Below are positions 27,325-47,637 of a stretch of DNA of 64,000 bases, piece by piece. Positions within the stretch are counted from its first letter, which is position 1. Each line of letters starts with the position of its first letter. The notes below the pieces were generated by a model, which worked only from the letters and a program-made list of their open reading frames with translations, did no database searches and was not told the DNA's origin. The DNA lies in IMG/VR virus record IMGVR_UViG_3300042542_005136, one strand, 5' to 3'. This DNA is from an uncultured virus (IMG/VR IMGVR_UViG_3300042542_005136) (taxonomy: Duplodnaviria; Heunggongvirae; Uroviricota; Caudoviricetes). Position numbers and translations under genes: made by a program.

Positions 27325-27330
27325 TTAATT

Positions 27331-27672
27331 ATGGCCACTTTTCCATCCATTGCTCCCACTTTTGATGCGCAAAAGCGCAGTCAGCCACGAGTTCGCACAG
27401 TTCAATTTGGCGATGGTTACGAGCAACGTCTTAAATATGGGCTCAATCAAAACCCAAAAGAATGGTCTCTCACTTTCATGGTGAACGACACCGATGCCGA
27501 CACCATTGAAACATTTTTGGACGCTAGAGCTGATGATGCGAATTCATTTGATTGGACTCCACCAGGAGAAAACTCTTCTTACAAGTGGGTATGTCGCGAA
27601 TGGACCAGGCAATTGCTAAGCGATGGATTTAATCAAATCAACGCAACTTTCAATCAAATCTTTGAACCATAG
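27331..27672 (+). CDS. Distal tail protein (lambda gpM-like)
   Basis: VQFGDGYEQR...GLN, FLDAR, FDWTPP. Confidence 0.88.
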   Translation: MATFPSIAPTFDAQKRSQPRVRTVQFGDGYEQRLKYGLNQNPKEWSLTFMVNDTDADTIETFLDARADDANSFDWTPPGENSSYKWVCREWTRQLLSDGFNQINATFNQIFEP

Positions 27673-28565: not shown

Positions 28566-28569
28566 GGAA

Positions 28570-29289
28570 ATGGAAATGAAGCTAAGTGCCGCTTTGCAAG
28601 CTGATATCTTACGGCACGCCAAGATTTGCGACCCGAAGGAATCGTGTGGACTAATTCACGTTGTCAAGGGGCGTCGTCGATACTTTCCTTGCACAAATAT
28701 TGCCGCCACTCCCGACGAACATTTTGTTCTGGATCCTGATGACTACGCTATTGCGGAAGATCTGGGAGAGATTATTGCAGTGATACATAGCCATCCAATT
28801 AGCCGCCCCCAGCCATCAGTCGCAGACCAGATTGGCTGCAACAAAACTGGTCTTCCGTGGATAATAGTCAACCCCAAGACTGAAGAATGGGGCGGTTGCG
28901 AGCCAAGGGATTTTGACCTACCCTATGTCGGTCGTGAATTTGTCTTTGGTGTTGTTGATTGCTATGCATTAGTGCGTGATTGGTACAGGCGAGAGCTTGG
29001 CATTGAACTGGCTGATTTTGAACGTCGCGATGGCTTTTGGGAGAGAGGGGAAAATCTTTACGTTGACGGATATAAGAGTCAGGGGTTTCGTCAAATTGCC
29101 TTTGAAGATTTGCAATACGGTGATGGAATTTTAATGCAGCTTGGCGCTGATCTCCCTAACCATGGCGCTATCTATCTTGGCGATCAGCAAATTCTGCACC
29201 ACGTCCAAGGAAGACTATCCAGCAGGGACGTTTATGGTGGCTATTATGTAAAGAATACTGCCATGGTCTTGCGGCATGAAAGTCGTTAA
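28570..29289 (+). CDS. Tail assembly protein K (JAB + NlpC/P60)
   Basis: ESCG, HSHP..PSVAD, DCYALVRDWY, NHGAIY, ILHH. Confidence 0.9.
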   Translation: MEMKLSAALQADILRHAKICDPKESCGLIHVVKGRRRYFPCTNIAATPDEHFVLDPDDYAIAEDLGEIIAVIHSHPISRPQPSVADQIGCNKTGLPWIIVNPKTEEWGGCEPRDFDLPYVGREFVFGVVDCYALVRDWYRRELGIELADFERRDGFWERGENLYVDGYKSQGFRQIAFEDLQYGDGILMQLGADLPNHGAIYLGDQQILHHVQGRLSSRDVYGGYYVKNTAMVLRHESR

Positions 29290-29908
29290 GGTGTATGGCG
29301 CTCTCCGCAAGAAGCTCGGGCAGTGCCGGTTTGAGTTTGACGTTGACACACCTGCTCAAGCAATCAAGGCGTTGTGTATCAACTTCCCAGGGCTTGAACA
29401 ATGGTTGATCAATGAAGAAGCGGCAGGCGCTGGTTTTCGCATTGGACTTGGCAAGGACAAAATTACAAAACAAAACCCCGAAGGTTTGGTTTTACCATGG
29501 TCGGAAAGGGAAGTTTTTAGCATCACTCCCGTAGTTATTGGAGCTGGTCAAGGTGTTGGGCAAATTTTTGCGGGCATTGGCTTGATTGCTCTTTCTATTT
29601 TGGTGCCAGGACTTGGGGGTGGCGTTGCTGCTGCTACTATTTTTGGTACGCCATTTACTGCACTTTCTCTAGGTATTGGCCTCACTGGCGCAAGTCTTTT
29701 GCTGACAGGCGTGTCAACTTTAATCTCGCCTCAACAAAGCATGGGCGGCTTTACTTCTGGACGGGAAGCGGCGCGGTTGGAGAGCTTCAGTTTCTCAGGC
29801 ATTGTCAACACATCCAAGCAAGGATTGCCAGTACCAGTGGCCTATGGCCGTCTTTTCGTGGGCTCTGCGGTGATTAGCAGCGGCCTTGATGTAAATCAAA
29901 CAGCATGA
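29276..29908 (+). CDS. Tail assembly protein I (lambda gpI-like)
   Basis: VYGALRKKLG, PVVIGAG, QGLPVPVAYG..VGSAVIS. Confidence 0.88.
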   Translation: MKVVKVYGALRKKLGQCRFEFDVDTPAQAIKALCINFPGLEQWLINEEAAGAGFRIGLGKDKITKQNPEGLVLPWSEREVFSITPVVIGAGQGVGQIFAGIGLIALSILVPGLGGGVAAATIFGTPFTALSLGIGLTGASLLLTGVSTLISPQQSMGGFTSGREAARLESFSFSGIVNTSKQGLPVPVAYGRLFVGSAVISSGLDVNQTA

Positions 29909-32900
29909 CCTATTCCATAGTCAGAGGTGCAGGTGGTGGCGGCGGTGGTAGCGGCTGTTTTCCGGGGCATACGCTTGTCAGCGTACCTGGTGGTCAACGT
30001 CGCATTGACTCATTAGAGCCTGGTGACGTAGTTTTAAGCTTTGATGATCAAGGGCGAATTATTCCGGCTCAGATCCTTAAGCTTCACGTTCACGAAGATC
30101 AACTTGTCAATCGCTACCATTTTTGGGGCGGCAATTACCTAGACGCCACTCCTAACCATTGGGTGTTAAACCAATTCAACGCCTTTGTTTGTATTGACAC
30201 GCTTGGAGCAGATGATTGTTTGGTCGACGGATTGGGGCACTTGCGTCCAATTTTGCACAAAGAAAAACTCCAAGCAACCACTGTTTACAACTTAACGGTT
30301 GAAGGGCAGCATACTTTCATTGCGGATAATATTCGCGTGCATAACGCTGGCCTCGGCGCGACCATCGCAGGCGCTGGTGGCGGCGGAGGCGGCGGTAAGG
30401 GCGGCGGTGGCTCGCAAAGCGTGCCCACCGAAGCAGATGATTCGCTGCAGTCTGTTCAATATGCCAGCGTTCTTGATTTACTCTGCGAAGGCGAGATTCA
30501 AGGGCTGGACGATGGCCTGAAGAGCGTCTACCTTGATGGCACCCCAATCCTCGGCCCTAGCGGAGGAAGCAATTTTACTGGCTATACCACCGACTTCCGC
30601 GCTGGCACTCAAGCTCAGTCATACATAGCGGCCACGAATGGCACGGAGTCTGAGAATGGTGTGAATGTTGAAGTGACTAATGCCACGCCAGTCGTCAGGA
30701 CCGTCACCGATACAGACGTGGATCGCGTGAGGGTGACCATTCAACTGCCAGCGTTGCAAATTATTGAAGACGATGGCGATATCATTGGTCACTCTGTGCG
30801 CGTTCAAGTGCAAGTGCAATACAACGGTGGCGGTTACACCACTGTTGTTGACGATACGATTAGTGGTAAAACGACCAATAGCTATCAGCGCGATTATTTA
30901 CTAACCCTTAGCGGTAGTTTTCCCGTGGATATTCGCTTGGTGCGTGTGTCTGCCGACGAAAGCAGCGCTCGGCGCCAAAATCGCACCTTTTGGTTTAGTT
31001 ATACAGAAATTCTTGACGAAAAACTACGCTACCCAAACTCGGCATTATCATTTCTTCGGTTTGATTCGCGACAATTTGATAATATTCCTACGCGCAAATA
31101 TTTAATTCGTGGTATGAAGGTAAGACTGCCTTCTAATGCCACTGTTGATACCAGCGTTTACAAAGGACGTGTCACATATGCCGGTGTGTGGAACGGTACA
31201 TTTGGGGCTGCTACTTGGTGCGCCGATCCTGCATGGTGCCTGTGGGACTTAATGACCAACACTCGCTATGGGGCGTCCATTCCCGAAGCGACGCTGGACA
31301 AGTTTGATTTTTATGCCATCAGTCAATATTGCAACGAGCTGGTTAGTAATGGCTTTGGCGGGTTGGAGCCCCGGTTCCAGTGCCATATGCTTTTGAATAA
31401 TCGCGATGAAATTTACAATGTTATTCAAGAATTTGTTTCACTTTTTCGCGGCATTGCTTACTATGGCGCGGGCTCAATGGTTGTGTTACAGGATAAGCCT
31501 GCATCGTCTCAATATCTTCTAGGACCAAGCAATGTAATTGACGGCAACTTTAGCTACTCAGGCAGTTCGCAAAAAGCCCGACACACCACAGCCACTGTCG
31601 GCTATCAAACTTACGAAAGCCTTGGGGAGGTGCAGTTTGAATATGTAGAAGATGCGGATGCTGTGTCGAAATATGGTGTGATCAATAAAGAAATCAAGGC
31701 TATGGGCTGTTATAGCAGGGGGCAGGCGCATCGTCTTGGTAAATGGTCGCTGTTGGCAGAACAAAACCTCACGGAAACAGTGAGCTTTTCTGTTGCCATT
31801 GATAGCGGTATTATTCTTCGCCCTGGCATGGTTATTGACATTGCTGATCCAGTCAAGGCAGGTAGTCGACGTTCTGGCCGCATCAGCAGTGCCACTACTA
31901 CTGCCATCACAGTCGATTCCATTGTTGGACTGCCAACCACGACAGCCAACTCTCCGACCATAAGCGTGCTCTTGCCCACGGGCCTCGTGGAGACACGCTC
32001 CGTCAGTGGCATTGCCAGCAATGTTTTTACGGTGAGCAGCGCATTTAGCGAAGCTCCCAATGCGCAAAGCGTTTTCCTGCTGCAGACGACTGATGTTCAA
32101 TCCAATCAGTTTCGCGTGTTGTCAGTAACGGAAGGTGATGACGGAGCATTCAGCGTGACGGCTCTTACTTACAACAACAGCATTTATGCGGCAATTGAGA
32201 GCGATTTGTCGCTCCAGTTCCGTGATATAAGCAATTTATCAGCCATTCCTGATGCACCATCGAACATTCAAGCGACCGAGCATTTATACGAAGACGGTCA
32301 AAGCGTTCTTACTGCCGTAGAGCTGAGTTGGATTAGTCCAGTACAGCGCGTTGCTGGCTTCCGTGTTGAATATCGCATTGATAACAATAACTGGACGCAA
32401 ATCAATACTTCTTCTCCATCGACGCGACTAACTGGCCTTCGGGCTGGCACTCTTTACGTTCAAATTCGCAGTGTTAACAGTCTTAACAAGTTGAGCGTGG
32501 CATCTACTGCGCAATTTACGCTCGTGGGCAAGACTGCGCCTCCAGGCAATGTTCAAGACCTAACCATTGAACCAATTAGCGCAAACAGTGCTCGACTGCG
32601 CTGGGCTCAAACCGTTGATCTCGATGTAAAAGTCGGAGGACGAGTGCATATTCGTCATACCAATCTCGCTGACGGCACTGGCACATGGAGCAACAGTGTC
32701 GACTTGATTCCAGCTAAATCAGGTGCTTCCACTGAAGCCATCGTGCCGTTGGTCGAAGGAGAAATCCTCGTTAAGTTTGAAGACGATGGGGGAAGGCAGA
32801 GCCCGCAAGAAGCTAGCGTTATTGTTGATTTTCCCGATGCTATTGGTGCGTTAATTATCCAGCAAAGGAGAGAAGATCAGGATGTGCCTCCTTTTCAGGG

Positions 32901-33660
32901 TGCCAAAACAAATGTCCTTTACAGCGAAGATCTTGACGCTCTTGCTCTCGACGCAGATGGTTTATTTGACGACATTGTAGATTTTGACGCCATTGCAACT
33001 TTGGACTTTTACGGAGCTATAGAGTCCTCCGGCGAATATACTTTTGCAAGCACAATTGATCTCGGTGCAGTTTTCTCTCTAGATCTTCGCCGCTATTTTG
33101 TTACTCGTGGTTTCTTCCCGAGCGATTTACTCGACAGCCGTACTGGCGATGTCGATGCTTGGTCCGATTGGGATGGAGGAGTGATTGATGGCGTCAATGC
33201 AAGGTTGTATTTACGCAGAACGCCTGACGATCCGAGTGGCACGCCTGCTTGGTCTGGCTGGCAAGAATTTGTCAACGGCACGTTTCTGGGGCGAGCCTTT
33301 CAATTCAAGGCGGAACTGACCAGTAACGATCCGGCAGAGAGCATTCTTGTTGACGAGCTTGGCTACGATGCGACATTTCAACGCCGCACCGAGCAGTCTG
33401 TTGGAGCTGTTAGCAGTGGTGCCGGGACGAAAACAGTCAATTTCGACAAGGCGTTCTTTACTGGCGTCACTGGCCTTGGAGGCAGCAACGCTTACTTACC
33501 GAGCATTGGCATTGTCGCGCAGGACATGAACACTGGAGATTATTTCCGCGTGACTAGCGTCACTAACGCTTCTTTTAATGTGACTTTCTACAACAGTAGT
33601 AACGTCGCAGTGAGCAGGCAGTTCCTTTGGTCGGCCATAGGATATGGAAAAGGCGCTTAA
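29905..33660 (+). CDS. Tail tip / host specificity protein J with an N-terminal Hint domain
   Basis: DLLCEGEIQG, YPNSA, DPAWCLWD, YCNELV..G.GGLEPRF, FN3-like repeats. Confidence 0.9.
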   Translation: MTYSIVRGAGGGGGGSGCFPGHTLVSVPGGQRRIDSLEPGDVVLSFDDQGRIIPAQILKLHVHEDQLVNRYHFWGGNYLDATPNHWVLNQFNAFVCIDTLGADDCLVDGLGHLRPILHKEKLQATTVYNLTVEGQHTFIADNIRVHNAGLGATIAGAGGGGGGGKGGGGSQSVPTEADDSLQSVQYASVLDLLCEGEIQGLDDGLKSVYLDGTPILGPSGGSNFTGYTTDFRAGTQAQSYIAATNGTESENGVNVEVTNATPVVRTVTDTDVDRVRVTIQLPALQIIEDDGDIIGHSVRVQVQVQYNGGGYTTVVDDTISGKTTNSYQRDYLLTLSGSFPVDIRLVRVSADESSARRQNRTFWFSYTEILDEKLRYPNSALSFLRFDSRQFDNIPTRKYLIRGMKVRLPSNATVDTSVYKGRVTYAGVWNGTFGAATWCADPAWCLWDLMTNTRYGASIPEATLDKFDFYAISQYCNELVSNGFGGLEPRFQCHMLLNNRDEIYNVIQEFVSLFRGIAYYGAGSMVVLQDKPASSQYLLGPSNVIDGNFSYSGSSQKARHTTATVGYQTYESLGEVQFEYVEDADAVSKYGVINKEIKAMGCYSRGQAHRLGKWSLLAEQNLTETVSFSVAIDSGIILRPGMVIDIADPVKAGSRRSGRISSATTTAITVDSIVGLPTTTANSPTISVLLPTGLVETRSVSGIASNVFTVSSAFSEAPNAQSVFLLQTTDVQSNQFRVLSVTEGDDGAFSVTALTYNNSIYAAIESDLSLQFRDISNLSAIPDAPSNIQATEHLYEDGQSVLTAVELSWISPVQRVAGFRVEYRIDNNNWTQINTSSPSTRLTGLRAGTLYVQIRSVNSLNKLSVASTAQFTLVGKTAPPGNVQDLTIEPISANSARLRWAQTVDLDVKVGGRVHIRHTNLADGTGTWSNSVDLIPAKSGASTEAIVPLVEGEILVKFEDDGGRQSPQEASVIVDFPDAIGALIIQQRREDQDVPPFQGAKTNVLYSEDLDALALDADGLFDDIVDFDAIATLDFYGAIESSGEYTFASTIDLGAVFSLDLRRYFVTRGFFPSDLLDSRTGDVDAWSDWDGGVIDGVNARLYLRRTPDDPSGTPAWSGWQEFVNGTFLGRAFQFKAELTSNDPAESILVDELGYDATFQRRTEQSVGAVSSGAGTKTVNFDKAFFTGVTGLGGSNAYLPSIGIVAQDMNTGDYFRVTSVTNASFNVTFYNSSNVAVSRQFLWSAIGYGKGA
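29956..30345 (+). other. Hint (intein-like/BIL) autoprocessing domain, 130 aa, inside gpJ
   Basis: Block A CFPGHTLV, block B ATPNHWV, blocks F/G VYNLTVEGQHTFIADNIRVHN; +1 residue is Ala. Confidence 0.88.
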
Positions 33661-33685
33661 AATAGTAGGAAATTCTTTGTAAATT

Positions 33686-35170
33686 GTGGCACAACACGAC
33701 TATTCGATCGCTAACGGAAGCGGCGCCGCCGTTCGTAGCGACTTAAACAATGCGCTTTCTGCCATTGTTAGTCAAAACAGCGGCACGACAGAGCCCACCA
33801 CCACCTACGCCTACATGCGCTGGGCCGATACCACGGCTGGCGTCATGAAGATGCGTAACGGCGCCAATAATGCCTGGATCACCCTTTACCAACTCGATGG
33901 CGAGTGGAGCACCATCGCCTTTGAGAACGGCAGCGCTTCCGCTCCATCCATCTACTTCAAGGACAGCGGCACCGATACCGGCATCTACAGCCCTGGCACT
34001 GATCAGGTGGCCATCAGCACGGGCGGCACCGGGCGCCTGTTTGTTGACTCCAGTGGTCGGGTAGGTCTGGGGACTAGTAGCCCTAGTTTTGCAGCACACA
34101 TCAGTTCCGCAAAGAATACAAGCCAGCTATTTATTGGCATCACTGGGCTGAGTTCCGTTGACGACTACGCGCAAATTGGACTTGGCAGCGGCTCAACTCC
34201 TTATGGTCTTGTACGACTTGGTTTTGATAATCCAGCAGGTGTCACCAATACATACTTAAGCTTCTATAACAACAATGGTTCAAGTAATGTTGAGCGCCTT
34301 CGTATAGACTCTTCAGGCCGCGTAGGGATTGGCACTACGACGGTTAGCTCTGCCCTCCACGTCATCGGAGACCAAATCCGTTTTAGCAATAGTTCAAACG
34401 CTTCATTCTATGGAACTATTACTCACGACGCAAATTCCACAGGCGCAAATATCTATAATTCTGTAGACAGCGGTCCTGGTCATATTTTTCAAAGAAACGG
34501 AACTGAGCAATTGCGGATTGATGCCAGTTCTAGGCTTTTAGTTGGCACGTCTTCTAGCGTTAGTTCAACCGCACTTATACAGGCTTACAAACCAAGCGGA
34601 GAGTTGCAGTGCGTTGTAAATTCTGGAAGCCTTGGCAACGCTGAGGGAGTAGTTTTTACCGCAAATGCTGGCGGAAGGCTTTCTCAGTTTGGAGCCTATA
34701 AGCACTCGGGGATTACCAATCCCTGCTCTTATTATTATCTTGAGCAACAAAATGGAGCTGGTCAAGTCTTTTGGGTTGATGATTCAGGTAATTTTAGACT
34801 TAGTACTAGCGGCGGCAACATCGGCACCACAGGCGGCACCGTCGTCGGCACACAAACATCTGACGAACGACTCAAGAACATTCTTGGGCCCGTCACATAC
34901 GGTTTGGGCACGCTCAAGCAGATCGAGCCAGTCCGTTACACGCTAAAGTCACAGCCCGACATCGAACAGCTTGGCTTTATCGCCCAGCAGGTGCAGCCAT
35001 TGGTCCCTCAGTCGGTGTTTGACACTAAGGAACACATTGAAGGCGAGCCCGAGGATGCACCGACCAAGCTCGGCATGGAGTACGTCGCGCTGATTCCAGT
35101 GCTGGTGAACGCTGTTAAAGAGCTATCGGCTGAGGTTGACGCATTGAAAGCACAACTCCAAGCCTTGTAG
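33686..35170 (+). CDS. Tail fibre with C-terminal intramolecular chaperone (peptidase S74-like)
   Basis: Repeated (L/F)xxDSSGRVGxGT modules; SDERLKNI, GFIAQQV, LIPVLVNAVKEL coiled coil. Confidence 0.88.
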   Translation: MAQHDYSIANGSGAAVRSDLNNALSAIVSQNSGTTEPTTTYAYMRWADTTAGVMKMRNGANNAWITLYQLDGEWSTIAFENGSASAPSIYFKDSGTDTGIYSPGTDQVAISTGGTGRLFVDSSGRVGLGTSSPSFAAHISSAKNTSQLFIGITGLSSVDDYAQIGLGSGSTPYGLVRLGFDNPAGVTNTYLSFYNNNGSSNVERLRIDSSGRVGIGTTTVSSALHVIGDQIRFSNSSNASFYGTITHDANSTGANIYNSVDSGPGHIFQRNGTEQLRIDASSRLLVGTSSSVSSTALIQAYKPSGELQCVVNSGSLGNAEGVVFTANAGGRLSQFGAYKHSGITNPCSYYYLEQQNGAGQVFWVDDSGNFRLSTSGGNIGTTGGTVVGTQTSDERLKNILGPVTYGLGTLKQIEPVRYTLKSQPDIEQLGFIAQQVQPLVPQSVFDTKEHIEGEPEDAPTKLGMEYVALIPVLVNAVKELSAEVDALKAQLQAL

Positions 35171-35382
35171 TCCTACTCTCTGCGAAGGCTGGCTCAACTA
35201 TCTGGAAATCCCGGATGGTTGGGCTTGGCATTAAAAAGGGGCAGGATGTCACCCCTGCCCCTATGCAACGGGATATCACCTCCGTTGCGGTGCCTTGTCA
35301 GCCGAAGCACTGTAGCACATGGTAGTGTGGTGGGGCAGCGAGTTTGCGGCTCCTGCCCCCTGGCCACGATTCCCTAGAAACC

Positions 35383-35748
35383 ATGACCCAACAAGATTAC
35401 AGGCACCCCATCACCCCACCTCCGGAGCTGGTGCAGCAGTGGTGGGACGACTTCAACGGTGCCTTTTACGAGTTTAAAGCAATCACCACCAAGGTCTTCC
35501 AAGCTGGCGCAGACCAGGAGCTGGAGGCGTGCTGTGAGTGGATTAAGAATTATCCATGGGCAGAACACGTTAATCGCCACTTGCTTATTGAAGCCTTTCG
35601 TTCCGCCCGCCGCCCCAGGCCGCCGAGCTTGAAGGAGCAGGCGCTGGAAACGTTGCAAAGGCTGTCCAAAGATGGATACCCCTGCAACTATCAAGAAGAT
35701 TCTGATTGGGACACCATCCGCTGCGCACTGGAGCAACTCGATGACTGA
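35383..35748 (+). CDS. Paralog family A protein (HPITPPPEL / GADQELEAC / RRPxPPSLKEQA / TIRxALEQLDD)
   Basis: Shares four blocks with 53062..53406 and three with 52119..52400. Confidence 0.8.
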   Translation: MTQQDYRHPITPPPELVQQWWDDFNGAFYEFKAITTKVFQAGADQELEACCEWIKNYPWAEHVNRHLLIEAFRSARRPRPPSLKEQALETLQRLSKDGYPCNYQEDSDWDTIRCALEQLDD

Positions 35749-35992
35749 CATCACCATCCCCGAAGGCAGCCCATTTGCTCACTTTGGCGGGACAGTTTGG
35801 CCTATTCCAGGTAGCCGACTGCGCGACCTAGAGCACACGCTTAGGTATGCGCAGAAGGGCCATATCTTCAACATGCAAGACCGACTCCTCGCTGCTTCCG
35901 TCATAAACGCTTACATCGAGCTTGTCTGGCAAACGCAGGAGGGTCGCAATGAAATCGCTGCCAACTTGTTTACCGCTGCCCAAAATGACTAA
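35741..35992 (+). CDS. Hypothetical protein
   Basis: Starts in the ATGACTGA overlap of the upstream gene (MTDITIPEG...). Confidence 0.7.
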   Translation: MTDITIPEGSPFAHFGGTVWPIPGSRLRDLEHTLRYAQKGHIFNMQDRLLAASVINAYIELVWQTQEGRNEIAANLFTAAQND

Positions 35993-36137
35993 CCCCAGCA
36001 CCACCGACTTCCGAGCGCTGTGCGCTGAGCTGCTTTGCAGCCTGGAACAGTATCCGGTGCAACCTCCCAGGGACCGCGACTTGATTGACCGCGCCCGAGC
36101 TGCTCTGGCCCAGCCCGAGCCGCAGCAAAAGGTCTAG
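35985..36137 (+). CDS. Paralog family B protein (TDFRALCAEL...RARAALAQPEP)
   Basis: ATGACTAA overlap; motif shared with 52578..53069. Confidence 0.7.
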   Translation: MTNPSTTDFRALCAELLCSLEQYPVQPPRDRDLIDRARAALAQPEPQQKV

Positions 36138-36139
36138 CA

Positions 36140-36229
36140 ATGACAATCTTGATCCTGTTTACTTGGGCTGCAGGCTTTATAACGGGATTGGTAGCTGGAC
36201 GCGCCATCACCATCCACTGGTTCAAGTAG
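36140..36229 (+). CDS. Small membrane peptide (29 aa)
   Basis: MTILILFTWAAGFITGLVAGRAITIHWFK; its stop TAG is part of the 36227 site. Confidence 0.5.
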   Translation: MTILILFTWAAGFITGLVAGRAITIHWFK

Positions 36230-36243
36230 TCATTCCCATTAAA

Positions 36244-36495
36244 ATGTCTGAACCAGAACAGATTCGCCGAGTAATTTCCCTGTCGGCATCGACTTATTAC
36301 TACACCGATTTCTTGAAGGAAGTTGAGGAGGAGATCCAGAAAAAAGCATTTCTTGTCAATGCTGGTCTGGATAAATTCTCCAAGGCAGAAATTTTTGCTT
36401 ACTGGGCTCTACACGCAAATGGCTATTTCTTTGTTGAGCCAGAACAAGCGAATCACGATCTTCCGGACCAAGCAGCCATTGCCAAACCCTCGTAG
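36244..36495 (+). CDS. Hypothetical protein (cassette-like)
   Basis: Bounded by the 36227 and 36493 sites. Confidence 0.65.
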   Translation: MSEPEQIRRVISLSASTYYYTDFLKEVEEEIQKKAFLVNAGLDKFSKAEIFAYWALHANGYFFVEPEQANHDLPDQAAIAKPS

Positions 36496-36513
36496 TCACC
36501 TTCTTTAATCACC

Positions 36514-36696
36514 ATGAACGCTGAAAACAAACGGTTTATTAAACAGTTCGTGATGGATCGCCTCTGGAGCGATACCGAAAAGCTTCGTCTTGATCTCAGT
36601 AATTACGCTAGTACTCGTGGCGTTGATGAGCTTGAAGCGATGGAAGAGTACGAGTATCAAGTTGAGCGTATTCAAAAGATGCTTGCCTGTTTTTAG
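36514..36696 (+). CDS. Hypothetical protein
   Basis: 60 aa; KRFIKQFVMDRL...EEYEYQVERIQK resembles 53406..53657 (KQIVRTFMLDKM...ECFDYEAYRIEK). Confidence 0.65.
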   Translation: MNAENKRFIKQFVMDRLWSDTEKLRLDLSNYASTRGVDELEAMEEYEYQVERIQKMLACF

Positions 36697-36698
36697 TT

Positions 36699-36866
36699 AT
36701 GCACGATAATCAAATTACCTGGCAAGGGGAACCACTTGATGATGAAGATGAAAACGATATACATTTTAAAAAGTGTATAGAAATCATTAACAACTTTAAG
36801 CCTGGTGAGCTGGAACAGTTAATGGGAAAAGAGTTTATGGAAGAATTTAAACGCATCTCGGCTTGA
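36699..36866 (+). CDS. Hypothetical protein (55 aa, not in ORF track)
   Basis: MHDNQITWQGEPLDDEDENDIHFKKCIEIINNF... Confidence 0.55.
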   Translation: MHDNQITWQGEPLDDEDENDIHFKKCIEIINNFKPGELEQLMGKEFMEEFKRISA

Positions 36867-36891
36867 CAGCATCTTTCTGGGCGAGTAGTGT
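36863..36891 (+). promoter_or_regulatory. Sigma70-type promoter of the recombinase
   Basis: TTGACA-N17-TAGTGT, 24 nt before the ATG. Confidence 0.65.
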
Positions 36892-36915
36892 AACCGTCTT
36901 CACTCACTTCAGATC

Positions 36916-37770
36916 ATGCCCACCACCCTAACAGAGCTTTGGAGCGCCTTCTTGGAGGAGCGCTCCATTTCCTTGTGTCCAACGAGCCTTACCTCTGACT
37001 ACAGGCAAGTGACTAAATGGCTCACTCGCTGCCCCATTCAAGACATTGACGAAGCCCGTAAGATCATGATTTGGGTGCTGGGTGAAAAACCAATACTCAC
37101 CGCCAGGCGGGTGGCAATGTACACAAAAACCATGTACAAGTGGGCGTCTCAAGAGGATATCGCCTATATACCCCGAAATCCATTGGCAAGCTTCAAAATG
37201 CCAAAGGCGCCGCAAAAGGATGAAGAAATTGTCGTCATTCCTAGAAGCGAAGTCGGATTGGTTCTTGCTGCGCTAGAAGCAAAACAAACGTATCGCCATG
37301 TCAACTGGTCTTGGTACACAGAATTCATGCTTCAAACCGCTATGCGCACGGGCGAAGTGAGAGCTTTGATGTGGAACGATATCAAAGACAACAAAATTCT
37401 TGTGCATCAAAACTGGACTCTTACTCACGGACTGAAAGATAGCACCAAGACAAACAAGAAAAGATGGGTGCCCTTGAATGGCAAATGCCTTAACATTCTG
37501 GAGCAACTGCCCAAAAACAATGACTTTCTTTTCCCATGGGACCGACTGGCTTTCCAAAGCTATTTCAGGAAAAAGCTGCAGCCGCTGCATCAGGCGGGCC
37601 TGATCACTCATCTTTACAGACCATACGACTGTCGGCACACCGCCATCAGTCGCTGGATCGAGGCCGGGATCCCCGTCCCCCAAGTTGCTGCGTGGGCCGG
37701 AAATACCAGCGAAGTGATCTTCAAGCATTATTGCAATACCACGCAAGAGTACGAGATGCCCGTGCTGTGA
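36916..37770 (+). CDS. Tyrosine recombinase (no arm-binding domain)
   Basis: TAMRTGE (R), TKT (K), YDCRHT (HxxR variant), AGNT..VIFKHY (catalytic Y); 284 aa. Confidence 0.9.
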   Translation: MPTTLTELWSAFLEERSISLCPTSLTSDYRQVTKWLTRCPIQDIDEARKIMIWVLGEKPILTARRVAMYTKTMYKWASQEDIAYIPRNPLASFKMPKAPQKDEEIVVIPRSEVGLVLAALEAKQTYRHVNWSWYTEFMLQTAMRTGEVRALMWNDIKDNKILVHQNWTLTHGLKDSTKTNKKRWVPLNGKCLNILEQLPKNNDFLFPWDRLAFQSYFRKKLQPLHQAGLITHLYRPYDCRHTAISRWIEAGIPVPQVAAWAGNTSEVIFKHYCNTTQEYEMPVL

Positions 37771-37817
37771 TCTTTTCCATTCGTCCCTTAAACTAACTAA
37801 GACTGTTTTTTTGTCTC

Positions 37818-38132
37818 ATGACCACTGAATTTTCTTGGAATATTGCCACGATGGAGCGCACGCTCTCTGATGGCATTGTTTATACGCTTCACTACACGGT
37901 TGAAGCCTTTGATGGCACTTACCGCTCCAGTGCCTATGGCAGTATCGGCCTCGAGGCTCCAGAAGGCGATGAAGCCATTCCATATGCCGATCTGACGAAA
38001 GCGATCGTACTTGGCTGGCTTCTTGACAAGTTCGGAGAGGAAAAGGTGGCTGAAATTCTGGGCGCTCTTCAGGCTCAGATTGATGAGCAAAAGGCTCCCA
38101 CAAAAGGCACTGGCACGCCTTGGGCTAGCTAA
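37818..38132 (+). CDS. Tail-fibre-associated small protein
   Basis: FSWNIATMER...IPYADLT...WL...G.PW, a pattern typical of genes that follow tail fibres. Confidence 0.65.
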   Translation: MTTEFSWNIATMERTLSDGIVYTLHYTVEAFDGTYRSSAYGSIGLEAPEGDEAIPYADLTKAIVLGWLLDKFGEEKVAEILGALQAQIDEQKAPTKGTGTPWAS

Positions 38133-38155
38133 GCTTTTCTTTTCGCATTGTCCTC

Positions 38156-38293
38156 GTGGCTGTCAAAAGCAAAGCCGGAGCTTCCAGTAGCAAGCGCATC
38201 ATCGTTTCCCGTCCTAAGACCACTCGTCAGGGGCAAGGCAAAAACAGCAAGCCAAGTCACGGAAGGAAGCTAAAGCGTGGACAGGGCGGTTGA
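38156..38293 (+). CDS. Small basic protein (45 aa, not in ORF track)
   Basis: MAVKSKAG...PKTTRQGQGKNSKPSHGRKLKRGQGG. Confidence 0.6.
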   Translation: MAVKSKAGASSSKRIIVSRPKTTRQGQGKNSKPSHGRKLKRGQGG

Positions 38294-38307
38294 CGATAGC
38301 AAGAGCA

Positions 38308-38339
38308 GGAGGTAGCCTAAGGGCTGCCTCTTTTCTTTT
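38308..38339 (+). terminator. Rho-independent terminator
   Basis: GAGGTAGCC-taa-GGGCTGCCTC followed by TTTTCTTTT. Confidence 0.6.
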
Positions 38340-38588
38340 GTGGCCTTCGTCAACTCAATTTCCTTTTCCCATCGCTTTTCCGACGATGGCGTGATGCACG
38401 ACACTTGCTCGTACCAAGAAATCAATCACACTTACAGCGCCGACACCGCCACTGCACTCGCTAGAGCATACTTTCAGTTTATGGTGGCATGCGGCTATGC
38501 CCCGCAAAGTGTTATTGAAGGCATGCTGTGCATTGGCACTGAATACGAACAGGCTTATTGTTACGATGGAGAGAAAGCTAGGGATTAG
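38340..38588 (+). CDS. Hypothetical protein
   Basis: 82-aa ORF (YFQFMVACGYAPQSV). Confidence 0.6.
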   Translation: MAFVNSISFSHRFSDDGVMHDTCSYQEINHTYSADTATALARAYFQFMVACGYAPQSVIEGMLCIGTEYEQAYCYDGEKARD

Positions 38589-38590
38589 TC

Positions 38591-39823
38591 ATGGGGCAAA
38601 TTGTGCGCGGTGGTGAGCAGTTTGAAACCCATATTGAGGCTGATCATCGCGGGCAAATACTCGCCAAGGGCCCCGACAGTGGCGCTCTCGACGCTTTTGG
38701 TAGACAACGCTTTAGCGAGCCGTTCACTTTGTTTGATTCGGCATTGCAATACAGTAAGCGCACCGATCTGTGGGACGAACAAGCTGTAGGTAGCGGAAGC
38801 ACTCTTTATCTGCCAAATGAAAGCTCCTTGGAGTTAAATACCACCACTGCGTCTGGAGATACAGTGTTGCGGCGCTCCAAGCGGAGCCTGCCTTATCAGC
38901 CGGGCAAAAGCTTGATGGTGCTGGCTAGTTTTGTTGGCAATGCTCCCACAGATGGCCTGGTGCAGGAGATTGGCTTTTTTAACGACAACAATGGTGTAAT
39001 GTTGAGAGCAAGTGGCACGACCATTTCGTTCGTTGTTCGCAGTAAAGCAACAGGAACAGTGGTAGAGAACATTGTCCCTCAGTCGTCGTGGAATATTGAC
39101 ACTTTTTCTGCCTTAAATTTTTCAAAAGCTAATATCTTCACTGCCGACCTGGAATGGCTGGGGGTGGGGCGCGTAAGGTGTGGATTCGTTGTTGACGGAG
39201 AAATTAAATATTGTCACGAATTTAACCATGCCAACACGATTGATAGTGTTTATATGACATCGGCAACATTGCCAGTGTCTTATCGAATTCACAATTCTTC
39301 TTCCATCGCCGCCAATGCATCGTTAAGGCAGATTTGCACTGCTGTTGTCAGCGAGGGTGGTTATCAGCCAACGGGGCCCATCTATATAGCTGGTCGAGGA
39401 GTGGAAACGTTTACTGCTATCACTGCGGAAACGCTTGTAGCAGCTATTCGCATTGCTAGCGGTCGCACCGATAACGTGATAATTCCCGCTCAAATTGATG
39501 CCAGTATAGGCGGAAATCCAGCTTCTAATATTGTCGCGCAATGGCGCCTACGGCTTAATCCAACCATCAGTGGCGCATGGACTGCTGCTAGTAATGGCAG
39601 GGGAAATGTGGAAGTTATGAGCAGCGGCACTTTTTCTGGTGGCACTGTTATTGGAGGAGGTTTGGTTGCATCGCGCAGTAGTATTGAATTTGACCCCGAA
39701 AGCGGACTCGCCTTGGCCCTTGGCAGCACCATTGACGGTACTAGCGACGTTATAGCTTTGACTATTCAATGCAGTACCAGCGAGCAGGCTACAGGGCTGC
39801 TGGGGTGGAGAGAAGTTGTCTAA
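38591..39823 (+). CDS. Putative virion structural protein
   Basis: DAFGRQRFSEPFTLFDS, YQPGKS, DLEWLGVGRVRCGF, C..VVSEGG; beta-rich. Confidence 0.65.
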   Translation: MGQIVRGGEQFETHIEADHRGQILAKGPDSGALDAFGRQRFSEPFTLFDSALQYSKRTDLWDEQAVGSGSTLYLPNESSLELNTTTASGDTVLRRSKRSLPYQPGKSLMVLASFVGNAPTDGLVQEIGFFNDNNGVMLRASGTTISFVVRSKATGTVVENIVPQSSWNIDTFSALNFSKANIFTADLEWLGVGRVRCGFVVDGEIKYCHEFNHANTIDSVYMTSATLPVSYRIHNSSSIAANASLRQICTAVVSEGGYQPTGPIYIAGRGVETFTAITAETLVAAIRIASGRTDNVIIPAQIDASIGGNPASNIVAQWRLRLNPTISGAWTAASNGRGNVEVMSSGTFSGGTVIGGGLVASRSSIEFDPESGLALALGSTIDGTSDVIALTIQCSTSEQATGLLGWREVV

Positions 39824-39851
39824 AATATTTTACAGGCACTAAGGCTTCGCC

Positions 39852-39959
39852 ATGATCACTCCAAGCAAGCACGATATTACCGTTTATCAAGGAGCCACCT
39901 TTGAACTGCAAGTGCAGCATAAGGATTCTTCTGGCACACCTGTGAAAATGATTGACTAA
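39852..39959 (+). pseudogene. Possible truncated remnant of a beta-sandwich virion protein
   Basis: MITPSKHDITVYQGATFELQVQHKDSSGTPV then an early stop. Confidence 0.45.
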
Positions 39960-40020
39960 ACGATGTAACTATTGATTGTGGAGAGTTTTAGGAGTAAGCT
40001 TGAGCGGCAAACAGAAACTG

Positions 40021-40377
40021 ATGGAGGATCCTTTGGTGGATTGGTTGAACACTCCTGAAATCAAAGCCTTTCGTGAAGCTTGGCAGGCAGAAGAGGTAAG
40101 AGCGCAGGCGGAAGATCAAGCCTGGTGGGACAGCCTCAATATAGAGGAAAGAGCAAGATGCTTCAGGCAAATGATGAAGCTCATGCACAAGGCGGAGGTC
40201 AAAGACAGAGGCTCCTATCGCTACGCCATGTACGACGTTTTCAGCGTGGACTATTGCGACGGACTAGCTCACTACATGGACCTGCACAATGCTATTTATC
40301 GTGGCCTGGAAGCGGACAGAAGGGCCTATAGGACGGATGATGAGGATGTACTAGGCGAAGATACAACTGGCCCGTGA
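40021..40377 (+). CDS. Hypothetical protein
   Basis: WWDSL...DRGSYRYAMYDVF...YMDLHNAI. Confidence 0.7.
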   Translation: MEDPLVDWLNTPEIKAFREAWQAEEVRAQAEDQAWWDSLNIEERARCFRQMMKLMHKAEVKDRGSYRYAMYDVFSVDYCDGLAHYMDLHNAIYRGLEADRRAYRTDDEDVLGEDTTGP

Positions 40378-40431
40378 GAGCCGCTCCTGCGGACAGCAGC
40401 ATTAAGCCTACGATTACTTCCATCGTCTGTC

Positions 40432-40839
40432 CTATTCTCCTTCCATTTTACTGGGGAGCTGCCAAGTGATACGGAGTTCCCATCCCAGAGCCTTAATGTC
40501 GTCGCTAGCGTCTGGAGGTGCTTCACGCACGATCATCACAGAAGGAACGATGGCATCAGGTAAGGGCGTAACAGTGGCCTCAGGAAATAGCTCTCGAGCC
40601 TTATCAGCAAGCTGATTCGCCTTGGCTTCCCTTTCGTCTTTTTCCCATTGCTTCACCAAAGCAGCAGCTTGCTTGTCCACTGCTTCCATCACCACTTTTG
40701 TTTTCCACTCTGTCCAGTCGGGCCTGCAATAGGCCATGAGCATCTTGAACCAAGGTTTTCCCGCTAGCGAAGGCCATTGTCCTGCGACCCAAAGGCCAGC
40801 TTCGTAGCACAGTGCATTTAGCCAGGACTGCCGGTTCAT
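40432..40839 (-). CDS. Hypothetical protein
   Basis: 135-aa ORF downstream of the endolysin. Confidence 0.65.
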   Translation of the reverse strand: MNRQSWLNALCYEAGLWVAGQWPSLAGKPWFKMLMAYCRPDWTEWKTKVVMEAVDKQAAALVKQWEKDEREAKANQLADKARELFPEATVTPLPDAIVPSVMIVREAPPDASDDIKALGWELRITWQLPSKMEGE

Positions 40840-40885
40840 CCTTCTCTTTTTTTCATAAAATAAAAGAGCAATGGAAGTACGTTGC

Positions 40886-41827
40886 TTAACCTTCCTGGAA
40901 AACTGACAGAAATACTGTGCCGGCCTTGGTTAGCGGCAATACTTTATCGCGAAGATCAATGTTAAAGATTCTGCAACAACCATGAGTTGGTACTAGCGGC
41001 TGCTTGGGTGCCCACGCGCCCGGCCAGCCATTTGCGGACCCACCCCCGTGGAGGCAAATTCCAGAGCGTCCGTGCTTGGCCTCTTGATTTTCTAACTCAA
41101 CCATGTCAAAGGTGTACCAGCCATACGCCATTAGAGTGCGGTCGTAAGCAGGGTTGTTCCCAACTCGTTCATAGTCTCTGTAAATAGCTCCCAATTTGTA
41201 TAGGCCAGGAGGACAGTCAGAGTTTTTAATCTTCCATTCAAAATCGCTATATTGTCCACGAGCTAAGCAGGGAATTTCCCATAGTAGTTTTCCTTCAAAA
41301 GAAAAAGCCTTCATCGTCTCCACTAGATCATTGACGATTAAATGGGAGTCGCCTCTCTTGAAACCAAAATCTTGCGGGCGTTTCTTTGGGCCGATCATGG
41401 TAGAAGTGGTGGATTCGGGAGCGTATTGTTTCATGAGCCGCGAAAGTTTCGCGGGATATTCTGGGTCAGTGGCGTATTTCTGCTCCTTAAGCATGCGAGC
41501 AGCGGCGTAACGATTAGGAGCATTGTTAATGCCCTTAAACTGCCTATAGTCTTTATACCAGCGAGTGATGAGATATTCGATGCAGGCGGATAAGCTTGGA
41601 AAATCAATGAAGCCCGCCTTGATTGTCACCCACTTCCCATCGTAAAATTCTTGCGTAGATACCACGCTGCCCCCGCCCTTTAGGCCAAGGTAGTTGTGCT
41701 TGCCAGAAGTGTGTTGGCCAAAGCCGCTCTCTAAACAGCATTGAGCCGCCACAAGCTCTGGGAATCGCGCCCCGTGCTTGCGAGCAAGCTGAAAACACTC
41801 ATCCCAGAACTCTTTGCTTGTGGCCAC
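40886..41827 (-). CDS. Endolysin: GH73 glucosaminidase + L,D-transpeptidase-like domain
   Basis: AAQCCLESGFG, NYLGLKG, YATDPEY; C-terminal ICLHGGGS...THGCCR. Confidence 0.85.
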   Translation of the reverse strand: MATSKEFWDECFQLARKHGARFPELVAAQCCLESGFGQHTSGKHNYLGLKGGGSVVSTQEFYDGKWVTIKAGFIDFPSLSACIEYLITRWYKDYRQFKGINNAPNRYAAARMLKEQKYATDPEYPAKLSRLMKQYAPESTTSTMIGPKKRPQDFGFKRGDSHLIVNDLVETMKAFSFEGKLLWEIPCLARGQYSDFEWKIKNSDCPPGLYKLGAIYRDYERVGNNPAYDRTLMAYGWYTFDMVELENQEAKHGRSGICLHGGGSANGWPGAWAPKQPLVPTHGCCRIFNIDLRDKVLPLTKAGTVFLSVFQEG

Positions 41828-41832
41828 TGGCT

Positions 41833-41976
41833 TTAGCCCTTCACGCGGAAGATAGCCTTAAGACCAGTGAGGAGCAATTGAATGAGGTTGTTCTCTTTCC
41901 AAGGAGTGTGTTGAATCACCTGATCGAGAGCAGCAATGACAATGCCGCCAACAACGAACCACTCGACGCCAGTCAT
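41833..41976 (-). CDS. Small membrane protein, holin candidate (47 aa, not in ORF track)
   Basis: MTGVEWFVVGGIVIAALDQVIQHTPWKENNLIQLLLTGLKAIFRVKG, directly upstream of the endolysin. Confidence 0.6.
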   Translation of the reverse strand: MTGVEWFVVGGIVIAALDQVIQHTPWKENNLIQLLLTGLKAIFRVKG

Positions 41977-42001
41977 GATCGTAAAGAAAGTTTCTTAAAG
42001 C

Positions 42002-42211
42002 CTAGCGTCCAATTTCAAGCGAACGCACCCTTGTTTCCAAGCCCTTAATATTTTCTGTGAGTTGATCAAGCTTCTCTGCAATGTTCTCCACTTGCGTGGT
42101 GATCTTCACTTGCTGCTGGCCAATGCTCATCATCATGCCACCAGTGGCGAGCAGCATGCCAGCAGTAATGCTCACGGCCAAATGCGCTAGTTGTTCCTGC
42201 CAGGCATTCAT
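42002..42211 (-). CDS. Membrane-anchored coiled-coil protein (lysis module)
   Basis: N-terminal hydrophobic helix plus heptad C-terminus ending RVRSLE. Confidence 0.6.
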   Translation of the reverse strand: MNAWQEQLAHLAVSITAGMLLATGGMMMSIGQQQVKITTQVENIAEKLDQLTENIKGLETRVRSLEIGR

Positions 42212-42296
42212 TGCACGCAAGCTTTTTGTCCATTCTAAACAATTCCCACGCCGTTGTTTTTCTGGGTAGGCTTAAGGCAAGACAACTTATTTCGCC

Positions 42297-42782
42297 ATGG
42301 GGAAAGGAAATGAGGCCGACTTTCTTCTTTATTCCCTTTGTGAATTACGCCCTGGAGAAGCTAAGCGTCGTTTCCGAAAAAGTATTTTTGAAGACTACTT
42401 CCTGCGAGGCCCATTTGGTCACTGTGCCTGTGCTTATTGCGGCAAGTGGACGGAAAATCTGACCATCGACCACATTGTTCCCAAGAGCAAAGGCGGTCCG
42501 CATTTTTCAAAATGGAACAGCGCTCCTGCTTGCCTGTCCTGCAATGCGAGCAAGGGAAGCCTGCCAGTGTTTGAATGGTGGCGACCACAGAAGTTTTGGA
42601 CGCCAGAACGGGAAGAAAAACTTCTTGCGTGGGTGCATGCTCATAGCTTCATCAGTGCTCATACAGACATTGGAGAGTGGGAGCAATGGATGGAGCAAAC
42701 GCAGCGAATCGTGCCAGTGCATGATGAAAAGCAAAAGGCGGCTTTGTGGCCGCCTTTGTCGCAATTAAAGCTTGCTAGTTAA
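42297..42782 (+). CDS. HNH endonuclease
   Basis: CAYCG...TIDHIVPKSKGG...N..PACLSCNASKG. Confidence 0.88.
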   Translation: MGKGNEADFLLYSLCELRPGEAKRRFRKSIFEDYFLRGPFGHCACAYCGKWTENLTIDHIVPKSKGGPHFSKWNSAPACLSCNASKGSLPVFEWWRPQKFWTPEREEKLLAWVHAHSFISAHTDIGEWEQWMEQTQRIVPVHDEKQKAALWPPLSQLKLAS

Positions 42783-43140
42783 TTGGCTCGAATAGTTCTG
42801 AAGGACCTTGTCTGACGGAGGGCATGGGACAAAAGCCGTCTGTGCATTCTTCTTCTAAGCCCAAACTTTCTCGCATGATGGCTAGCACTTTCGTCGCCGT
42901 GTCATCGGCCTTCGCTTCCTCTGTCTCGACCATGGCAATTAAGCGATCCAGGTACCACTGAGCCTTTTTGAGGTCTTGAGCGCCATTTTTCATTTCATAG
43001 CGCCAAACGTATTTCAAAATGTTGCCCTTGAGCATGCCCTTAAAGGCTTCTCCGCTCATGGAAGCTTCGATGGCTTCGATGGCTTCGATGGCGCCGCTGG
43101 CGTAGTGCGACGGACTGTTCACGGGATCATGCATGATCAA
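42775..43140 (-). CDS. DUF3310 (SaV-like) protein
   Basis: DPVNSPSHY..GAIEAIEAI...GNILKYVWRY..KNG..DLKKAQWYL. Confidence 0.85.
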   Translation of the reverse strand: MIMHDPVNSPSHYASGAIEAIEAIEASMSGEAFKGMLKGNILKYVWRYEMKNGAQDLKKAQWYLDRLIAMVETEEAKADDTATKVLAIMRESLGLEEECTDGFCPMPSVRQGPSELFEPIN

Positions 43141-47465: not shown

Positions 47466-47505
47466 GGTGGCTGCCAAACAAAGGTCTAGACAAGCCACTG
47501 TACCG

Positions 47506-47637
47506 TCAACGACTAGGAATGCAATAGCCGCCAGAGCTGTAGTAGCCAAGCGGGCAGGAGCCGTTTTTGATGATGGGCTGGTTGCAAGCTGCAGCAGTGA
47601 TGGGCAAAAAGCAGAAGAAAATGAGAACGATTTTCAT
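47506..47637 (-). CDS. Small secreted Cys-rich peptide (43 aa, not in ORF track)
   Basis: MKIVLIFFCFLPITAAACNQPIIKNGSCPLGYYSSGGYCIPSR. Confidence 0.55.
   Translation of the reverse strand: MKIVLIFFCFLPITAAACNQPIIKNGSCPLGYYSSGGYCIPSR

Follow-up and report, generated by a model that had tools for sequence, protein, structure and literature searches.

The locus described here raises the question of what six short, similarly spelled DNA elements within and behind a phage tail-fibre gene are for, and whether the tyrosine recombinase encoded beside them acts upon them. It is part of a stretch of 64,000 nucleotides (the window) from an uncultured virus of the Caudoviricetes (IMG/VR record IMGVR_UViG_3300042542_005136), which is nearly the whole genome of a freshwater Synechococcus-type siphovirus. 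The original prediction, made from this one sequence, regarded six 15-bp sites of the form TAG(G/T)-N7-(A/T)(C/T)TN as a single family of recombinase sites, whose differing 7-bp spacers serve as slot addresses in the exchange of fibre modules and accessory genes. Comparison with relatives confirms that the sites mark module and cassette junctions; a recombinase-driven, spacer-addressed mechanism is not supported. The best reading of the locus is that of the swap-prone end of a tail operon, in which gpJ is followed by a mosaic fibre, small accessory open reading frames (ORFs), an optional integrase and DUF7936. With a probability of roughly 0.5, we infer that exchange takes place by short homology between co-infecting phages at two kinds of element, here termed boxes and linkers, helped by a phage exonuclease and a Sak-like protein.

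Direct reading of the sequence located all six 15-mers, at positions 34062, 34323, 34539, 35168, 36227 and 36493. Counted from the fibre start at 33686, the three sites inside the fibre gene are in the same codon phase (offset 1), and measured against the G-T of the repeated peptide the third is displaced downstream by one codon. The fibre terminates with the TAG at 35168, a 29-aa ORF with that at 36227 and an 83-aa ORF with that at 36493; an ATG stands 17 and 21 nt, respectively, behind the latter two stops, all as originally described. An enrichment of the degenerate pattern in the window was not found (40 matches versus 34.7 ± 5.6 after shuffling, with 17 of 100 shuffles reaching 40); an excess over a codon-preserving shuffle, expected genome-wide, was obtained for the fibre gene, on which this test was run (P = 0.014 for at least four matches). 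No copy of the ideal form TAGT-N7-ACTA is present in the window; its right arm, ACTA, held up as the consensus among relatives. Within this single genome the signal of the sites is weak. Eight consecutive plus-strand matches between 33663 and 36886 resemble a cluster in a region to which the pattern had been fitted. Two of these matches were rejected as sites: the one at 33663, in the spacer between J and the fibre, is a chance match that is not conserved in relatives, and the one at 36886 lies within TTGACA-17-TAGTGT, where it is likely the -10 box, conserved in relatives. The six sites do not form one family, as had been assumed; they belong to two separate families of conserved elements, the in-gene boxes and the stop-codon linkers.

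Relatives were collected as 78 viral loci with the recombinase, 46 with DUF7936 and 11 with an exact 30-mer from the fibre junction. The nearest record (G001; 68 kb, 95% complete according to CheckV) is collinear with the window and 92-99% identical over most of its length, and differs by the replacement of exactly 33653-37887. In two loci (L014 and L015), identity to the window is 98-99.96% as far as 34084, gives way to unlike sequence and returns at 97-98% from 36915; the segment 34084-36915 is likewise replaced in L016. The fibre of L040 is 72% identical in its N-terminal part and 98.6% identical from 34536 to 35230, the only part shared, with the switch at the third site, and a 321-bp block of the fibre is common to two further loci (L116 and L120), its left end 8 nt ahead of a box B and its right end 9 nt past a box A.

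Breakpoints were compared all-versus-all among 123 sequences, consisting of the loci then collected less 24 rows, plus window positions 27001-43000. The rows left out were duplicate loci from contigs already represented (L094, L097, L098, L100, L102, L103, L105-L107, L110), phage S-LBS1 (L001), the fragment loci (L002-L009) and pieces (L010-L013) of G001, and L146; the variable region of G001 stayed in the comparison as L130. A breakpoint was defined as the end of a block of 150 bp or more with 95% identity or higher, lying inside both sequences and with unlike DNA beyond. Regarding the 157 distinct breakpoint contexts, 14 lay within 15 nt of a box, versus 0.71 ± 0.82 at random positions, and 37 lay within 15 nt of a linker, versus 0.92 ± 1.0, so that mosaic breakpoints coincide with the sites far above random, as predicted. 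Identity between the putative parents of 54 recombinant triads has a median length of 12 bases (range 5-18), and in 22 of the triads it comes to just 5-6 bases, TAGTC. Around one shared 13-mer, two left and two right flanks (25 nt each) were found in all four combinations; no such set was found with long flanks. Junctions also occur at shared islands that do not contain TAG-N9-CTA, e.g., 35322-35400, which ends in the conserved start ATGACCCAAGAAGATTAC. Logan contigs from four lake metagenomes bridge 34083/4 to 34311-14, 34338/42 to 34536, 35227 to 35322, 35400 to 36006 and 35400 to 36225, mostly with sides of less than 30 letters; these bridges may derive from other phages, and stretches left uncovered do not count as evidence.

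The boxes are 14-15 nt long and encode the joint between fibre modules, D-S-S-G-R-(V/L)-(G/L)-x-G-T, or more generally D-S-S-G-R-x-x-x-G-T. At the first site, 37 of the 39 columns of 34037-34075 are invariant in all eight aligned loci, with non-homologous DNA downstream and synonymous changes upstream; the exact junction 30-mer occurs in 11 IMG/VR contigs. Among 86 distinct 60-nt contexts from relatives, picked by the peptide motif and not by DNA, 72 carry the TAG-containing spelling, and three or four fixed spellings recur that match sites 1, 2 and 3. (A separate selection by DNA pattern is circular for the central block and was used only to show the number of distinct flanks per box.) The five codons before the box (D-S-S-G-R) vary freely, and V/L replacements within it retain xTA. 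The expectation that the 15-mers are conserved at synonymous positions beside non-homologous DNA is thus borne out by both the eight-locus alignment and the 72 of 86 contexts. In S-CBP1 and S-EIV1, two unrelated cyanophages, this peptide motif is encoded without TAG; the spelling therefore belongs to the gene pool and not to the protein.

The linkers are one-directional and consist of (G)TAGTC plus six bases, supplying a stop codon to the ORF before them and a short leader to the one after, in 66-99 distinct contexts. Recurrent types are CCTACTC, CATTCCC or CATTACC, CACCTTC, CCCCTTC, CTTTGAC and CCACGTC. In the 3 kb before the integrase of 75 loci (153,805 nt), GTAGTC[AC] occurs 76 times on the coding strand, i.e., 0.49 per kb, as compared with 0.17 per kb for the opposite strand and, in other regions, 0.06-0.09 per kb. 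All 66 distinct 90-nt contexts of the linker 12-mer are co-oriented, most have an ATG or GTG 16-23 nt past the linker, and the consensus reads ACTA over positions +12 to +15 (A 39, C 46, T 43, A 46 of 66). Linkers occupy nearly the whole intergenic space, and in the window they are found at this locus only. Their upstream and downstream partners change: the end of the 29-aa ORF with its linker recurs in two relatives (L016 and L137) with different DNA downstream, and the ORF at 36514 is preceded in L062 by a CATTCCC linker. An overlap with a TTGACA-like hexamer exists only in the CTTTGAC and CCACGTC subtypes. Unrelated boxes and linkers share the ends TAG-N9-CTA. As a separate observation, a distant integrase relative (L077, about 7960-7995; 66% identity) carries the 6-bp perfect inverted repeat GTAGTC...GACTAC, with arms 14 nt apart, immediately before the integrase start.

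These findings are consistent with a process in which co-infecting relatives would reassort parts at boxes inside fibre genes and at stop-codon linkers. Because boxes and linkers would be the only sequence shared by otherwise unlike DNA, a homology-guided crossover would land there, and the phage exonuclease and Sak-like annealing protein may assist short-homology or microhomology recombination. Modules that keep the common spelling would spread to more genomes, which would fix the synonymous positions; the tyrosine recombinase would not be needed. According to PMC3945230, Rad52-like phage recombinases recombine short, diverged sequences, and the minimum for Red-beta is about 30 bp. The present locus resembles such relaxed recombination of the Rad52 type in that an exonuclease and an annealing protein are encoded and recent mosaics (more than 95% identity) are flanked by unlike DNA, and differs from Red-beta in that linker junctions share only 5-18 nt.

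It might be supposed instead that the elements are functional signals only, i.e., a fibre joint and a stop with translation leader, and that random illegitimate recombination followed by selection leaves gene ends intact. The start codons 16-23 nt behind most linkers, the filling of nearly all intergenic space by the linker and the presence of the peptide motif in unrelated cyanophages agree with this. Random joins would vary, however, yet the linkers are kept in register and scarless; the synonymous positions of the boxes do not vary, even though the peptide is spelled with different codons in other phages; and in the window the linker is confined to this locus and does not appear at other small-gene junctions. 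We regard this explanation as very unlikely.

The view of the recombinase as the engine of exchange is not supported: G001 and four partial relatives have boxes or linkers without PF00589 (0 of 5 records). In the integrase-less loci L122-L128, DUF7936 follows immediately on the complete series of linkers, and in L095, L111 and L129 a linker is found at that place as well; therefore the integrase behaves as one more optional insert. That DUF7936 is the gene next to the fibre block where no integrase intervenes had been anticipated and was confirmed. More distant relatives of the integrase (62-66% identity, L077-L084) have no linker array nearby. The idea of the spacers as slot addresses is not supported either. 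Spacer type follows the downstream flank (more than one type in 3 of 67 right-flank versus 8 of 68 left-flank families), and one and the same upstream gene end can precede different spacers: of the 17 left-flank families with several partners, 8 changed type. These changes, together with the triads that share TAGTC only, show that the 7-mers are not addresses.

Two relatives appear to have lost the integrase in part or entirely. In G001 (about 22235; L130 about 5993-6243), a 73-aa ORF is followed by a CACCTTC linker that runs, out of frame, straight into DUF7936 at about its codon 24, and it looks as if a deletion had removed the integrase together with the 5' end of DUF7936 (its first 23 codons). 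In L131 (about 1160-1296), the last 12 or so integrase codons stand directly behind a degenerate linker, upstream of DUF7936, through a second, independent deletion anchored at a linker.

The recombinase itself belongs to the family of the S-LBS1 integrase and matches PF00589 with 52.5 bits (cut-off 27.1, E 6.8e-14) and the phrog_1 integrase at 8.1e-40. Residues R144, K174, R240, H241 and Y272, identical in all 19 sequences compared, are the putative catalytic residues, their roles being assigned from the usual order of motifs; Tyr237 takes the place of the usual first His of H-x-x-R, and W260/N263 that of the usual His/Trp before the nucleophile. An AF2 model (mean pLDDT 81.4) has two domains, core-binding and catalytic, and Foldseek relates it to Tn1549 Int, lambda Int 75-356, XerA and XerH as the best folds, and further to IntI and Cre (E 8.7e-08 to 1e-04 overall). 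The description as a tyrosine recombinase devoid of an arm-binding domain was correct: the 284-aa model aligns to lambda Int 75-356 and Tn1549 Int 82-397 and contains no extra N-terminal arm-type domain. A sequence search of the PDB with the single protein gave no match, and a profile search one weak integrase (3nkh, E 0.0014). In NCBIfam, XerD (1.7e-05) and XerC (0.0017) matched weakly, both far below their cut-offs, and the integron-integrase model did not match. Regarding the promoter of its own that had been postulated, the sequence TTGACA-17-TAGTGT is conserved in relatives (L017, L018, L020, L021, L030, L031, L043, L059, L061) but was not flagged by a consensus promoter scan. By its sequence and model, the recombinase is a conserved, apparently active, core-only enzyme.

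The integrase of phage S-LBS1 is 80% identical and likewise lies between a tail-fibre gene and a DUF7936 gene; the order fibre, integrase, DUF7936 is found in S-LBS1 and in six of six diverse annotated long contigs. The gene immediately behind the integrase is DUF7936 in 56 of 64 metagenome loci, and in 35 of 62 a linker lies within 200 nt upstream of the integrase; other than the linker, no conserved non-coding segment was found next to the integrase. In the S-LBS1 paper, the integrase is treated as a lysogeny gene, yet no lysogeny was obtained after mitomycin C, and the att sites were proposed from a 14-bp repeat only (PMC6157547). Evidence for a prophage was not found: in 185,579 species genomes, two loci matched, both on short contigs of metagenome-assembled genomes labelled as non-cyanobacteria, in a search that did not directly include picocyanobacterial genomes. 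Contigs of the best 120 of 1338 homologue clusters do not exceed 82,777 bp, and those of the 80 metagenome integrase loci kept do not exceed 82,633 bp, i.e., phage size. A tRNA-linked attP was rejected, since the sole tRNA of the window is a tRNA-Ile at 3081, far off. In one relative (L037, 7888-7961), a complete tRNA-Arg(ACG) gene forms a cassette between the post-fibre linker and the pre-integrase linker; this is the sole tRNA among 16 relatives scanned and, being a complete gene, it was rejected as an attP fragment.

It is conceivable, though unlikely in our estimation, that this neighbouring enzyme recognises TAG-N9-CTA and catalyses crossover between co-infecting genomes, whether supplied in cis or in trans; in that case the overlap region may be (G)TAGTC, which is invariant, and not the 7-mer, which varies. 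Its position between the fibre block and DUF7936 in S-LBS1 and all six long contigs, the linker upstream of it in 35 of 62 loci, the quasi-palindromic consensus TAGT-N7-ACTA and the sharp junctions at linkers of 12-13 nt, too little identity for usual homologous recombination, speak in its favour. So do the deletions of G001 and L131 anchored at a linker, the high conservation of the enzyme with its putative catalytic residues intact, and the want of prophage evidence, with two matches in the species genomes and all contigs at or below 83 kb. On the other side, boxes and linkers persist in genomes without a tyrosine recombinase, the relatives of 62-66% identity have no nearby linker array, the conserved arms measure just 4-5 bp, of 17 left-flank families that took new partners, 8 did so regardless of the 7-mer type, many junctions are placed at islands lacking the motif, and there are neither hairpins nor inverted copies. 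The recombinase is probably a passenger, an ordinary simple-site integrase or an enzyme with some other role.

Several points weigh against short-homology exchange as the explanation. The 5-18 nt of identity at linkers are well under the approximately 30 bp mentioned above, and ordinary annealing recombination should be inefficient with them. Plain homology-driven exchange predicts neither the ends TAG-N9-CTA common to unrelated boxes and linkers nor a linker consensus that, among relatives, comes close to an inverted repeat of 4-5 bp, and the box spelling is confined to this gene pool. The deletions in G001 and L131 each end exactly at a linker and would fit a site-directed enzyme as well. 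Finally, the breakpoint contexts are not independent events, as one event may give several, and the random control took positions irrespective of gene boundaries. The same shared ends and linker-anchored deletions would also be accounted for if another sequence-specific factor, such as an HNH endonuclease, a dimeric DNA-binding protein or a host enzyme, made TAG-N9-CTA prone to breakage or recombination, with phage repair then effecting the swap. The elements occur independently of the integrase, and several HNH endonuclease genes are encoded in the window; in L030 (6036-6515), one such gene (phrog_99, 1.3e-59) lies within the variable block, between fibre and integrase. However, no candidate protein is tied to the elements by co-occurrence, and the shared ends could have been inherited from a common ancestor in each of only two or three families of elements, so that we consider such a factor quite unlikely.

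Among known systems, the integron consists of the tyrosine recombinase IntI, attI and folded attC sites. The present locus is similar to it in that a tyrosine recombinase stands beside co-oriented, mostly promoterless small ORFs with a conserved element after each, and differs in that the array exists without the recombinase, which here is co-directional and located at the far end of the array. Mean fold z at linkers was -0.04 and 0 of 66 contexts fell below z = -2, in agreement with the predicted lack of attC-like hairpins. The R64 shufflon (Rci) and Int1 of the haloarchaeal virus phiCh1 invert silent alternative segments held in the same genome. With these the locus shares a tyrosine recombinase adjoining an adhesin or fibre gene, constant N-terminal and variable C-terminal parts, and sites inside coding sequence at the joint between the two, whereas inverted or silent copies are missing from the window, again as predicted: the junction 24-mer is single-copy at up to three mismatches on both strands, and no meaningful inverted repeats were detected in 33000-38500. 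The locus is not an integron, because hairpins and an IntI-type enzyme are lacking, and not a shufflon, because there are no inverted copies.

The distal tail-fibre and gp38 adhesin genes of T-even phages reportedly recombine between conserved motifs (attributed to Tetart et al. 1998). Here, too, conserved motif DNA flanks unlike segments and recombinants join in the motifs (14 of 157 breakpoints versus 0.71), whereas the boxes are only 14-15 nt long, have synonymous sites fixed across hundreds of contexts, and are nearly all TAG-N9-CTA in one codon phase. In T4-type phages, PeSL cassettes (promoter-early stem-loop) mediate modular shuffling in hyperplastic regions (PMC2839356). The likeness lies in short conserved intergenic elements that punctuate a block of small non-essential ORFs and at which insertions, deletions and replacements end (37 of 157 breakpoints at linkers versus 0.92 expected). 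PeSLs are composites of a sigma-70 promoter and a terminator stem-loop that recombine with one another, whereas the linker is 12-17 nt long, includes the stop codon, has no hairpin and in most subtypes no promoter. PeSL shuffling and motif recombination in T-even fibre and adhesin genes come closest among known systems; what is new here is the much shorter elements, the codon-locked in-gene boxes and the small palindromic ends common to both types. No description of boxes or linkers was found in the literature on cyanophage tail fibre tyrosine recombinases or on DUF7936, although a record in print may exist. The features of the window are summarized in Table 1.

Table 1. Features of the window (64,000 nt) that bear on the fibre locus
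Feature	Position	Strand	Remarks
Tape-measure gene	23107-27324
gpJ-like central tail fibre / host specificity protein with N-terminal Hint (intein-like) module	29905..33660	+	FNIII-A_GpJ 4.5e-39; Phage-tail_3; Hint 2.9e-07; phrog_31 1.1e-240
Mosaic tail fibre, 494 aa	33686..35170	+	Conserved N-terminal part, AT-rich middle modules, C-terminal Peptidase_S74 chaperone
Junction island with box C (site 1, 34062-34076)	34037..34084	+	End of the conserved N-terminal fibre part
In-gene box B (site 2)	34323..34337	+	Encodes V-G-I-G-T; same spelling in many unrelated fibre contexts
In-gene box A (site 3)	34539..34553	+	Encodes L-V-G-T-S; left edge of the module shared with L040
Fibre stop with CCTACTC-type linker (site 4), then conserved, strongly folding non-coding stretch	35167..35290	+
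Three overlapping small ORFs (121, 83, 50 aa)	35383..36137	+	First is phrog_32006; present, absent or replaced among relatives
29-aa ORF ending in CATTCCC-type linker (site 5, 36227)	36141..36241	+	Read from the sequence
83-aa ORF ending in CACCTTC-type linker (site 6, 36493)	36244..36507	+
Two small ORFs (60, 55 aa)	36514..36866	+	No known family in Pfam/PHROG profile searches
Putative integrase promoter TTGACA-17 nt-TAGTGT	36863..36891	+	Conserved in nine relatives
Core-only tyrosine recombinase, S-LBS1 integrase family, 284 aa	36916..37770	+	Optional gene
DUF7936 / phrog_7802 gene	37818..38132	+	Conserved right-hand neighbour of the variable block; PF25590 7.7e-34
Exonuclease	46704-47549	-	PHROG match; values for this gene and the next: phrog_298 1.3e-48, phrog_8492 8.8e-45
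Sak-like single-strand annealing protein	47964-48929	-	PHROG match, as for the exonuclease

In addition to the genes listed, profile searches (Pfam/PHROG) identified terminase, portal, protease and lambda-like minor tail genes in the window, as well as endolysin and virion protein genes. At the N-terminus of the gpJ-like protein (29905-30350), PF01079 matches residues 16-87 and Intein_splicing, weakly, residues 124-147. This Hint module looks like an insertion in the lineage of the window, because the J homologue of L095 (1102 aa) matches the J profile from residue 16. In the fibre, residues 392-444 match PF13884 (3.9e-10), and tail-fibre PHROGs match as well. The switch in base composition that had been placed near 34062 was confirmed, the GC content at third codon positions (GC3) being 0.71 in 33686-34061, 0.35-0.38 in 34077-34800 and 0.66 in 34801-35167; the second sharp change (0.35 to 0.66), at about 34800, coincides with the start of the S74 chaperone module and has no box.

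The non-coding stretch behind the fibre stop is kept behind unlike fibre 3' ends in three relatives (L014, L040 and L062). Its RNA fold (35160-35290) has an energy of -66.7 kcal/mol (z = -6.74) with four stable hairpins, the second of which is a 15-bp stem with G-U pairs whose sequence is conserved in the same three relatives; a hairpin at 35237-35262 was flagged on the minus strand by a terminator scan. An Rfam search of 33000-38500 found nothing at E up to 1. Recoding of TAG was rejected, as a suppressor tRNA is absent from the window and a structured non-coding stretch follows the fibre stop.

Seven small ORFs lie between the fibre and the recombinase. The 60-aa ORF at 36514 is 85% identical in L062. 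A second copy of phrog_32006 is located at 52122-52400 on the minus strand, 16 kb from the first (35383-35748), and the variable block of G001 contains this ORF twice, in tandem. Between the recombinase and DUF7936 (37771-37817), the window and its relatives share the motif TAAACTAAC(T/G)AAGA(C/A), which in most loci lies 10-20 nt before the DUF7936 start, whether the integrase is present or not, and frequently has a terminator-like hairpin ahead of it.

For the evolution of host range, it is an old question by what means receptor-binding modules pass between phages whose genomes are otherwise unlike. In this gene pool, 51 of 157 recent mosaic breakpoints (about a third) lie at elements of 12-15 nt that make up well under 1% of the DNA. 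The elements are therefore a sharply defined and abundant natural substrate on which short-homology exchange and a site-directed enzyme may be told apart. The S-LBS1-type "integrase" is a widespread phage gene, and its presumed role in lysogeny is so far without support. Should the TAG-N9-CTA elements, doubtful as this appears, be the recognition sites of a dedicated enzyme, most obviously the core-only recombinase, that performs crossover between co-infecting genomes, they would form a system in nature for exchanging cassettes, both receptor-binding modules and accessory genes, operating within coding sequence and across unlike DNA.

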